A stretch of 64,000 nt of DNA, taken from Bilabrum cf. latius (Eukaryota). Numbering within the stretch: the stretch's first letter is position 1; each line of letters opens with the position of its first letter. Shown here piece by piece: positions 25,071-28,000 of this stretch. Under the pieces are notes generated by a model. It ran no database searches and was not told the DNA's origin. It saw only the letters and a list, made by a program, of their open reading frames with translations. The stretch lies in contig OZ237744.1 in assembly GCA_965178125.1 (NCBI GenBank), positions 868,001 to 932,000 on the forward strand, read 5' to 3'. The position numbers were made by a program, and so were the translations under genes.

Positions 25071-28000
25071 ATGGAGTGGCTTCGGGGAATCAGCGATTAT
25101 GTAGCAAAACAGTCCATTATATCGGTATTAAACTCTTCGCTGAGCATATACCTCAAACGGAGTCCAATTACCTCTGATTAGGTTGAATTTTCGACTGAGC
25201 GCGGTGTTTCGCTGGTTGTTCGTGACCTCGAGCTGCAGTTACGCCCGGGTGCAGAGCTGCTCTAGATTAAGCATCTCAATCTTTCAGCTGGAGTTGCTGC
25301 CGTTGGGCATGTAGCCAGCGCTAAAGTTGTCGTTCGAGGCGTTGTGCTTACCACCGTGATGCAGCGGCCAAGCGTCCGTCGAGCACTGTCAAATAGAGAT
25401 TCTGCTGCTCCATACGGCCCAGTGCATCCGTAGGTACCGCAACTGTCGCATTGGGGTCGGGCTACTGGTATTTTAAGAGCCATGGAATCCCTCGCTGGGA
25501 GGTTTGCCACTGATTTAGAAGTTGAAGTGTTCGATGTTCGTGTTCAGCTAGACTTTCCCAAAGGCACAGATCCACGAGCCAGCCAAGCCCACACGAAAGC
25601 CAGTCCCTCTGTTGCATCGCGGCGATCGATGGCGACAGGTGGCGCAACATGTGCAAGCGTGTCTCAACCAATCGCGTCTGGGGTGCAGCTTCGCGTCGAT
25701 CGCATTCGAGCTCTCGTGTCCCAGCACGGGGGCCAGCCGCACGCAGAGGATCTAGGTGCGAGTGTGTTGGAAGAGTCTGGTCAGTGGCAGGTCCCTTCTG
25801 CAGGGGACAGATACAGCTGGGCGGGCACCGCGGGGGGTGTGCTGGAGAGGACGATCGCCTGCTTCGGCGTCTCCCTCGGGCTGCTGGTGGATGCAACCGA
25901 CGGGGGAGGTAGTGCCGAGGTCATCCCTCTCTTATGTTTTGCGGGGGATTCGAGGGTCCATCGGATGGAACCGGCTGGCAGAACTGCCTCACATGCCTCG
26001 CATGCCCAGCAGGACGCCACTGGACCAACTCGCTCTCGCCACGAAGGCGAGGAGCTATCCGAGAGTGGAGCCACAGCCAGCGCGGGAGTGACCCCAGGCG
26101 GGGCGATGCCTTGGTAGACAAACGACAGTACGTCTGGCCTAGACTCAGCTGGATATTTTGCAGGGGCTGCATGGCAGGGCGGCAGCGGCGTGTTCGGAAG
26201 CGGGGGAGTGCTCGGCGGTCATCTTCAGCAGGGTGCTGGCGGTGGACTGGCCATGGCTGGTGATGCTGCAGCGGGGGCAATTGGTGAGCATTCGCTTAAT
26301 TCTGGTGGTACCCCCAGCTTATAGCGGGCAGACGCATCGTGGGATACCCACCTTTTATCGGTAGACGTGGCACCTCTCAAGGTGAAGGTGCAGCTGCACG
26401 CGGCCCCGCGACCCAGCGGCTCGACCGCAGGTCGAAAGATGAGGATTGACGCGCACGTGCAGGCCGGTGGATTGCGGGTTTTGATGTCCCCTTCCCGATT
26501 GCGCGGGCTGGCACCGCTTGTTGCCCTGCTGATGGTTCCTGCCCCCGTGGCCTCCGGAACCTTCGCGGACGCGATCTGTCCCTCGGTGGCACGTACGAGT
26601 TCTGCACGAGTACCAGCTGCCGGTGGAACTGACAAGAAGGATGGTGCGAGCGTTTCAAGCGACGACGAGGCTGTTGTTGAGCGGATACTGCTCACTGCAG
26701 CAGGCGTGAAGCCAGAGGCTGGTAGCATTGCTGCAGATGGCGCGGCACACCTACCAGCTGTCTCTCCTGAACCTGCTAAGCCATCTGGTCTGCGAGAGGA
26801 CACCGGTACGGTTACAGGGGGATTTGTTTAGACATTAGGCTGGCTAGTTGGTCTATCCAATGCTCCTAGCGGCCGAGCTACCCTGTCACCTGAGGGCAGT
26901 GATTCAGCGGCGTCTGCCGTCGGGCGCGATGTAGGTGCAGTTGATGCGGGTGCCAATGAGGAGGGAGTCGGCAGCAACTCCATGTTTTCTTTCGCCGCAA
27001 GGCCTGTGGTAACACGCGGGTTAGAGCCGCAAGGTAAAATGGGGCCCGGTAAAGGTCAGGATGGGCCCAGAGGTGACGATACCATGACCTCATTCATGTC
27101 CTTTCAGTCAAGCGGGTCATCGTTCGTGCAGTCGGCTACCGAACAGCAGGAAAAGTCTTCGCTTCGCAAATCAAAGGTAGTGGAACAATCTATGTAGGCA
27201 TCGCGGCTAGCAGAGCGATCGAGTTAGATTATTCTCAGGCTTGATGCAGCTGTCCGCTATGTACAGGTGCAGCTCTTCGACTGTGAGCCGAGTGGGCCAA
27301 CGAGCGAGAATGCCAAAGCACTCGTTCTCAGCCTAGGAAATTTGAGAACCAAGTAGGCTGAAGCACTCGAGCTTGCCACATTCGGAGTAATGCTCGAATA
27401 TGTACAACTAGACAGCGAACTGCGCTCGCCGTGGGACGGAGATCTGACTCTCGCTTCAACCTCAGACGGCAGTGACGAAGCGACAGACTCAGACGCAGCC
27501 AGCAGCGCGGCAAACGAAATGGATGACGCGGTGCCTCTCGGTGGAATCGCTCCCACGGTGAAAGGGGTTCAAGATGCTGCAATCATGCAGTTTGCCGCCC
27601 TGCGTGGAAGCAAGTCCGACGAATCAGGTGCGAGCATCGATGTTGAACTCGGTGACATTAGTCTGCGAGTTCCAACCAGCAGCCTCCATGTGCTGCTTTG
27701 CAATGGATACCATGCTGCCCTTGAGGCTGTATCCAACGAAGTTGATCACGAGCTTGACATGCAGTGGTAGTCCATTTCTGATGTGATTTCTGGCGCAGTG
27801 CCAGTACTGTACCTGCCTGCTGGAGCAGACCCTAGTAGTGCGGGCAAGCGCTACCCTGGGCTGGCGCTGGTCGAGATAAAGCCACCACACGTCTCAATTG
27901 CAGCCTCAAAGCTGTCGCTCTCTATCGCGGGGGACTCGCCTGGAAACAGTAGCCTATGCATTAATGTAGGTGCCGTTAACGTTAGGAATGATGCCCTGGG

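Follow-up and report, generated by a model that had tools for sequence, protein, structure and literature searches.

What does the codon TAG mean in the nuclear genome of the eukaryote Bilabrum cf. latius? The question is raised by a stretch of 64,000 nucleotides of contig OZ237744.1 (assembly GCA_965178125.1, positions 868,001 to 932,000 of the forward strand), hereafter the window, in which all positions below are counted from its first letter. One of its open reading frames (ORFs), here called ORF H (25071-31604, + strand), runs from the ATG at 25071 through 2177 codons to a TGA and carries 21 TAGs in frame, the first two of which to be pointed out were codon 37 (25179-25181, + strand) and codon 65 (25263-25265, + strand). 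The window comes from the nuclear genome of a eukaryote that is GC-rich (61% guanine plus cytosine) and has few introns. A first-pass annotation made from the letters alone had placed the start codon and these two TAGs correctly, and had proposed that TAG encodes glutamine (Gln) in the manner of NCBI translation table 15. That proposal is supported here by evidence from close relatives that the annotation did not contain: on the sequence comparisons described below, UAG is very probably a standard sense codon for Gln in this nuclear genome, and the code fits table 15, with TAG as Gln and with TAA and TGA as stops.

The sense reading of TAG, as distinct from the residue that it specifies, follows from codon counts. 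Across 16 ORFs of the window with long repeats trimmed, TAG occurs in frame 131 times per 13,504 codons, and it occurs 137 and 125 times in the two other frames of the same ORFs; the agreement between in-frame and out-of-frame counts indicates that in-frame TAG is not counter-selected. In the same ORFs TAA is found in frame four times and TGA ten times, every one of them at the end of an ORF, against 49 and 61 out-of-frame TAAs and 211 and 294 out-of-frame TGAs. If TAA were also read as Gln, about 45 internal TAAs would be expected (from a TAG:CAG ratio of 150:536 and 161 CAA codons), and none was seen. These counts, together with the absence of internal TAA, establish TAG as sense and leave TAA and TGA as the stops. 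Ignoring TAG as a stop yields ORFs of 2194, 2218, 2640, and 4982 codons; with the standard stops (table 11) the longest ORF has 541 codons, two repeat genes excluded. TAG is present in frame in every long ORF, and many TAGs lie within acidic or serine (Ser)/glycine (Gly)-rich low-complexity stretches. The genes are long, mostly intron-less, rich in glutamate (Glu), and located on both strands, and the G+C content of the window is 60.9%. All four ORFs that end in TAA (ends at 2971, 4559, 15342, and 15469) are followed by a tandem in-frame TGA 0, 3, 13, or 20 codons downstream, and for six ORFs terminated by TGA the distance to the following in-frame TAA or TGA was found to be 13 to 93 codons.

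An account that leaves decoding unchanged would have UAG removed before translation, either by uridine-to-cytidine (U-to-C) editing to CAG or within tiny in-frame introns, the protein then still carrying Gln or lacking the residue. Editing to CAG has in its favour that it would leave the same comparative pattern in DNA as decoding as Gln; however, editing or intron removal would require 131 events in 13.5 thousand codons, an intron of a single codon is impossible, and the near-equal frequency of TAG inside and outside the reading frame is what an ordinary sense codon would show. Nothing in this analysis points to pervasive nuclear U-to-C editing, and we know of no system in which it occurs. 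We regard removal before translation as very improbable.

Residues opposite TAG in close relatives

In the public protein collections that were searched, the organism and its relatives are present only as gene fragments. The relatives used for comparison are such standard-code ORF fragments, 40 to 342 residues long from genes of 900 to 2200 codons, of which 15 were aligned; the comparison turns on relatives 76-90% identical in protein, plus one at 56%. Besides ORF H, the sites compared lie in ORF F (15469-22053, - strand; 2194 codons, 19 in-frame TAGs, TAA end) and ORF C (4559-7306, - strand; 915 codons, 13 in-frame TAGs, TAA end), for neither of which a Pfam family was found; sites are named by ORF and codon number.

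At nine window TAGs a relative's fragment runs across the site with a sense codon, at eight of them in relatives 76-90% identical and at one in the 56% relative only. The relative has Gln at six of the nine and tryptophan (Trp), arginine (Arg), and Ser at one each, and Glu, leucine (Leu), tyrosine, and lysine (Lys) occur at none. The Gln sites are H587 (26829-26831, + strand), where the flanks are identical in fragment P0003 (85% identity), H1690 (30138-30140, + strand) and H1843 (30597-30599, + strand), both opposite P0002 (82%), F341 (21031-21033, - strand; P0020, 86%), F503 (20545-20547, - strand; P0008, 56%), and F600 (20254-20256, - strand; P0007, 87%). At F600, P0008 stops exactly at the site and a more distant relative at 34% identity (P0015) has Glu followed by Gln. 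The three other residues are the Trp of P0002 (82%) at H1655 (30033-30035, + strand), the Arg of P0007 (87%) at F691 (19981-19983, - strand), and the Ser of P0026 and P0027 (76-77%) at C616 (5459-5461, - strand).

The ends of the fragments are informative as well. Ten of the 12 fragments at least 75% identical end exactly before a window TAG, at nine distinct sites, which indicates that TAG is conserved there, and the other two end opposite a CAG codon for Gln in the window, namely F384 (20902-20904, - strand, coordinates derived by hand from the codon number), which lies opposite the stop that ends P0020, and F890 (19384-19386, - strand), opposite the stop that ends P0006. In all, TAG or a stop in one lineage faces a sense codon in the other at 11 sites; the sense codon specifies Gln at eight of these and Glu at none. 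In an ungapped extension of a 51% relative (P0012) a stop fell opposite a window TCG; this alignment was too uncertain and the site was left out of the count. Because the 76-90% relatives stop at window TAGs, as the fragment of the 56% relative does at one site, the reassignment seems to be older than this species, and the close relatives and the 56% relative appear to share the UAG change.

Likelihoods calculated over the relatives' sites favour the same residue. Under BLOSUM90 the log10 likelihood is -7.4 for Gln, -11.4 for Arg, and -12.1 for Glu, and under PAM30 it is -8.3 for Gln and -12.7 for the next residue, so that Gln exceeds the next residue by 4.0-4.4 log10 units and Glu by 4.7 (BLOSUM90) to 9 (PAM30). 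The share of TAG among TAG plus Gln codons is 12.7% within conserved domains and 17.4% outside them (p=0.46), a similarity that fits synonymy with Gln. A classifier based on the composition of neighbouring residues placed Arg, Lys, Leu, and Gln within 2.9 ln units of one another for the TAG contexts, and this classifier is weak, ranking the true residue first in 16 of 30 calibration trials for Gln.

A relative is also visible at the level of DNA in two sequencing runs (X10 and X11), in which it spans the entire stretch 11704-31604; the listed pieces longer than 1 kb differ from the window at 7-12% of letters. We examined 40 of the 2025 DNA differences, none of which falls at a TAG. The 36 differences listed in one gene comprise 30 at third positions, and the resulting codon changes are 28 synonymous and 6 non-synonymous. 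This predominance of synonymous differences suggests that the genes are under purifying selection in both lineages, and that the frequent exchange between TAG and CAG behaves as a synonymous change. These data bear on the view that the TAGs are artefacts of pseudogenes, assembly errors, or wrong frames. Nothing was found in its favour. Against that view stand the presence of TAG in every long ORF, the 10 of 12 close-relative fragments that end exactly at window TAGs, the mostly synonymous changes between lineages, and the contigs of runs under three other organism labels and from three other studies (X5-X9), which carry much of a neighbouring stretch, the listed ones from X7 and X8 being letter-identical to it. 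We give an artefactual origin practically no credence.

Distant homologues and tryptophan positions

Several observations weigh against Gln as the meaning of TAG. The informative sites number 11 and come from three genes, a small sample; the stops of the relatives were taken to be TAG, which is an assumption and not something seen in the fragments; and sampling is biased, because a fragment running across a TAG is longer and easier to find than one ending there. Being a transition, a change from TAG to CAG is mutationally favoured regardless of decoding, though CAG outnumbers the equally favoured outcome TGG by 8 to 1 (two-sided binomial p ~0.04). No gene for a transfer RNA (tRNA) was found in the 64-kb window with ARAGORN or Rfam, so that the decoder of UAG is unseen there. 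The last two points of this kind, which come from distant homologues and from TAGs at Trp positions, bear on two specific alternatives.

The distant comparisons number seven, six of them TAG sites in two families and the seventh the 34% relative at F600. A COMMD10-like ORF (31735-32439, - strand) matches COMM_HN (PF21672) with 39.2 bits, above the cut-off of 23, and its top matches in the PDB are COMMD10 chains (E=1.6e-8). An exon with an ENTH domain (63279-63761, + strand) matches PF01417 with 91 bits and the ENTH domain of epsin-1 with E=6.5e-23. In the COMMD10-like ORF, codon 39 (32323-32325, - strand) lies opposite a Gln of human COMMD10, the TAG at 32245-32247 (- strand) opposite a Lys, and codon 210 (31810-31812, - strand) opposite a Glu. 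In the ENTH domain, codon 65 (63471-63473, + strand) faces the Trp within the epsin-1 motif DPWGP, codon 74 (63498-63500, + strand) opposite a Glu, and the TAG at 63657-63659 (+ strand) opposite a Gln. The PDB alignments of the aldose epimerase, metallophosphatase-like, and TAF13-like proteins of the window stop short of any TAG, and one further site in ORF F (F1358) was dropped because its distant homologues align unreliably there (Leu, Gln, Leu, and a gap, with 6 of 11 falling short of the site).

These alignments allow the grounds of the earlier proposal, which were TAGs at conserved Gln positions in three unrelated families, to be assessed. One of the three Gln matches is borne out, that of COMMD10, where the PDB alignments, with human-type chains only, do place Gln opposite the TAG when VARVA*TIH is set against the human LTRILQKLH. 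The second concerned a giant ORF with an N-terminal cyclophilin domain (35590-50538, - strand; 4982 codons; PF00160, 54 bits, residues 102-256), in which HAG*L had been set against DCGQL; the TAG at 49468-49470 (- strand) is indeed codon 357 of this ORF, but in the PDB alignments the cyclophilin domain closes with ...ADC facing LVQC (residues 268-271); the TAG thus lies outside it, 86 residues further on, and the pairing is wrong. The third concerned codon 37 of ORF H, where ITSD*VEF had been set against LSLDQLSL of the ATG2 N-terminus, and this TAG is without an alignable homologue. ORF H had been labelled ATG2, a family that is unconfirmed: it has no Pfam match at E<=0.01, its N-terminus has none even at E<=10, residues 1-200 have no PDB match at E<=10, and only the C-terminal part matches PF13329 (ATG2), weakly (E=0.083, 11 bits where the cut-off is 50). 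A single-sequence AlphaFold model of residues 1-240 was unusable, with a predicted local distance difference test (pLDDT) score of 37.

The residues found in the seven distant comparisons are Trp, Glu, Gln, Gln, Lys, Glu, and Glu, and when they are taken alone Glu (log10 likelihood -7.6) is level with Gln (-7.8), so that for this window distant homologues cannot separate the two residues. The first-pass annotation had named Glu as the main alternative to Gln, and it remains so. In favour of glutamate, which UAR codons (UAA and UAG) encode in Blastocrithidia and in peritrich ciliates, are its three appearances among these seven comparisons (ENTH codon 74 and COMMD10 codon 210, where the earlier pairings of L*IA with SEIA of epsin-1 and of L*F with VEF of human COMMD10 are confirmed, and the 34% relative at F600) and the richness of the genes in Glu. 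The close relatives argue otherwise: Glu occurs at none of the nine spanned sites in relatives at least 56% identical, where Gln occurs at six, the two reverse cases (F384 and F890) are both CAG and neither is GAG, and the relatives' likelihoods place Glu below Gln by the 4.7 to 9 log10 units given above. When relatives and distant comparisons are combined, the log10 likelihood is -15.1 for Gln and -19.7 for Glu. A glutamate reading of TAG therefore receives a very low probability from us.

TAG stands where TGG would be expected in three cases, which are the Trp of the ENTH domain at 63471-63473, a site overlooked by the earlier annotation, H1655, and one of 12 repeat copies of the giant ORF, in which the TAG at 42031-42033 (- strand) is replaced by TGG in the other 11 copies. 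The Trp of the DPWGP motif is, we take it, nearly invariant among ENTH domains. These cases would suit a reading of TAG as Trp at some or all sites, through ambiguous decoding or through adenosine-to-inosine (A-to-I) editing of UAG to UGG, and stop-loss A-to-I editing is known in filamentous fungi. Among the relatives, however, Gln prevails over Trp by 8 to 1, and no likelihood run places Trp among its top six residues. With TAG decoded as Trp, the Trp content would climb from ~1.0-1.15% to ~2% of codons, and such a reading sits poorly with the many TAGs in acidic or Ser/Gly-rich low-complexity stretches. TAG also tracks Trp codons poorly across domains, its share relative to Trp codons differing between domains and the rest (p=0.019). 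Once TAG is a sense codon, moreover, a change from TGG to TAG is a missense mutation reached by a single transition and no longer a nonsense mutation, so that a few cases of this kind are expected. We hold a Trp reading of TAG, by either route, to be highly unlikely. With TAG as Gln, the ENTH epsin-like protein has lost the Trp of its DPWGP motif, and a side effect of a sense TAG is that the Trp codon TGG can drift to TAG through one transition.

Other genes of the window and runs that carry it

Several genes of the window have features of their own. In the giant ORF at 35590-50538, the cyclophilin domain is followed by 12 near-identical tandem copies of ~1 kb each, every one of which contains two conserved TAGs, identical in place among the copies, and a Gly-alanine (Ala) tract whose length varies. 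The N-terminal part of the ORF at 51741-59663, at 56463-59663 (- strand), consists of ~1060 residues of short proline (Pro)/Lys-rich repeats of the type PSKPEKPGKPASPGGK; the TAG at 56460-56462 falls in the last, degenerate unit, at a position occupied by Lys (AAG) in the repeat. A probable GT-AG intron, ~60 nucleotides long (61960-62022, - strand) and richer in AT than the exons, interrupts a CDK-like kinase gene, with the glycine loop GQGTYG on one side, at the end of the ORF at 62023-62643, and the remaining kinase domain on the other, in the ORF at 60037-61959. A coiled-coil ORF with 19 TAGs was without a match in a word-based search, and a protein atlas returned only 'kinesin', with no taxonomy that could be used.

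The window and its relatives were also sought in sequencing runs. Four runs that share one organism label, sample, and study (X1-X4) contain all sampled words of 22279-31604, and five runs under three other labels and from three other studies (X5-X9) contain 26-94% of them; the listed pieces from X7 and X8, which lie within 11704-31604, show no difference from the window. The relative that differs by 7-12% comes from one run under a fifth label and one labelled algae metagenome, and relatives occur in runs labelled algae and protist metagenome. The source organism may live with other cultures or contaminate them. None of the listed runs that carry the stretch is an RNA run, and the DNA of the relatives was not found by scanning metagenome, genome, and viral contig collections. 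Within a kinesin-14 motor gene, a Ser/Ala-rich low-complexity insert (22891-23338) draws in contigs from other organisms in each of the four runs compared letter by letter with the window, with depth to ~1500 and many loose ends, so that depth there is uninformative for the source organism.

Decoding and comparison with known code variants

Under the proposed code, UAG would be read by a dedicated tRNA-Gln with the anticodon CUA. Such a tRNA would pair with UAG and not with UAA, a blindness that would explain why UAA has stayed a stop, and the release factor eRF1 would presumably have lost recognition of UAG. Neither other RNA genes (Rfam) nor, among the window ORFs, an eRF1 gene (Pfam) was found in the window. 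PMC11687900 invokes a CUA-anticodon tRNA of this kind to account for reassignments confined to UAG.

Reassignment of UAG alone to Gln is described for the fornicate Iotanema spirale and for the ciliates Protocruzia tuzeti, Hartmannula sinica, and Trochilia petrani, the last two of which are phyllopharyngean ciliates (PMC11687900). The window resembles these cases in that only UAG is reassigned, Gln is assigned from comparative data, and UAA and UGA are stops; it differs from them in its G+C content of 61% and its long, nearly intron-less genes, and it bears no sign of a ciliate or a fornicate. Reassignment of UAG alone to Leu is described for the rhizarian 'exLh' and for three ciliate genomes from TARA Oceans metagenomes (PMC5304391, PMC11687900). 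There, too, UAG is uncoupled from UAA, and the route proposed is a tRNA with a CUA anticodon that is blind to UAA, but the residue differs, Leu being found at none of the nine spanned sites in the window.

The aphelid Amoeboaphelidium protococcarum, a parasitoid of algae, is cited as an organism in which both TAG and TAA specify Gln (PMC6299283, PMC5304391), and two Amoeboaphelidium assemblies have GC contents of 40.5% and 39.9% (PMC10608142, Table 1). It shares with the source of the window that a non-ciliate eukaryote associated with algae has turned a stop codon into Gln; unlike it, the window has TAA as a stop and a GC content of 61%, and Amoeboaphelidium was rejected as the source of the window because GC content and the use of TAA differ. 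In Blastocrithidia nonstop, UAR encodes Glu and UGA encodes Trp. The window is like this species in having in-frame stop codons throughout otherwise normal genes and unlike it in that only UAG, and not all three stops, has changed, with Glu as its meaning unsupported. A search of the literature returned no report that matches such an organism, which is weak evidence since coverage of journals is partial.

A bolder combination would join these threads, namely an undescribed, GC-rich, alga-associated lineage in which, without any link to ciliates or fornicates, UAG alone came to mean Gln, and in which, in addition, some of the TAGs at Trp positions, the one in the ENTH motif DPWGP included, are turned back into Trp through A-to-I editing or ambiguous decoding. 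We consider this quite unlikely as a whole; if it were true, one codon would stand for two residues according to site.

For UAG as a codon for Gln, the practical meaning is that annotation with the standard code breaks the genes of this genome into pieces and that the right table is 15. The genome would add a rare case in which the meaning of UAG has changed while that of UAA has been kept, in an organism that is GC-rich and not obviously a ciliate. A change confined to UAG would also fit the idea that a tRNA with a CUA anticodon lets this codon change alone.

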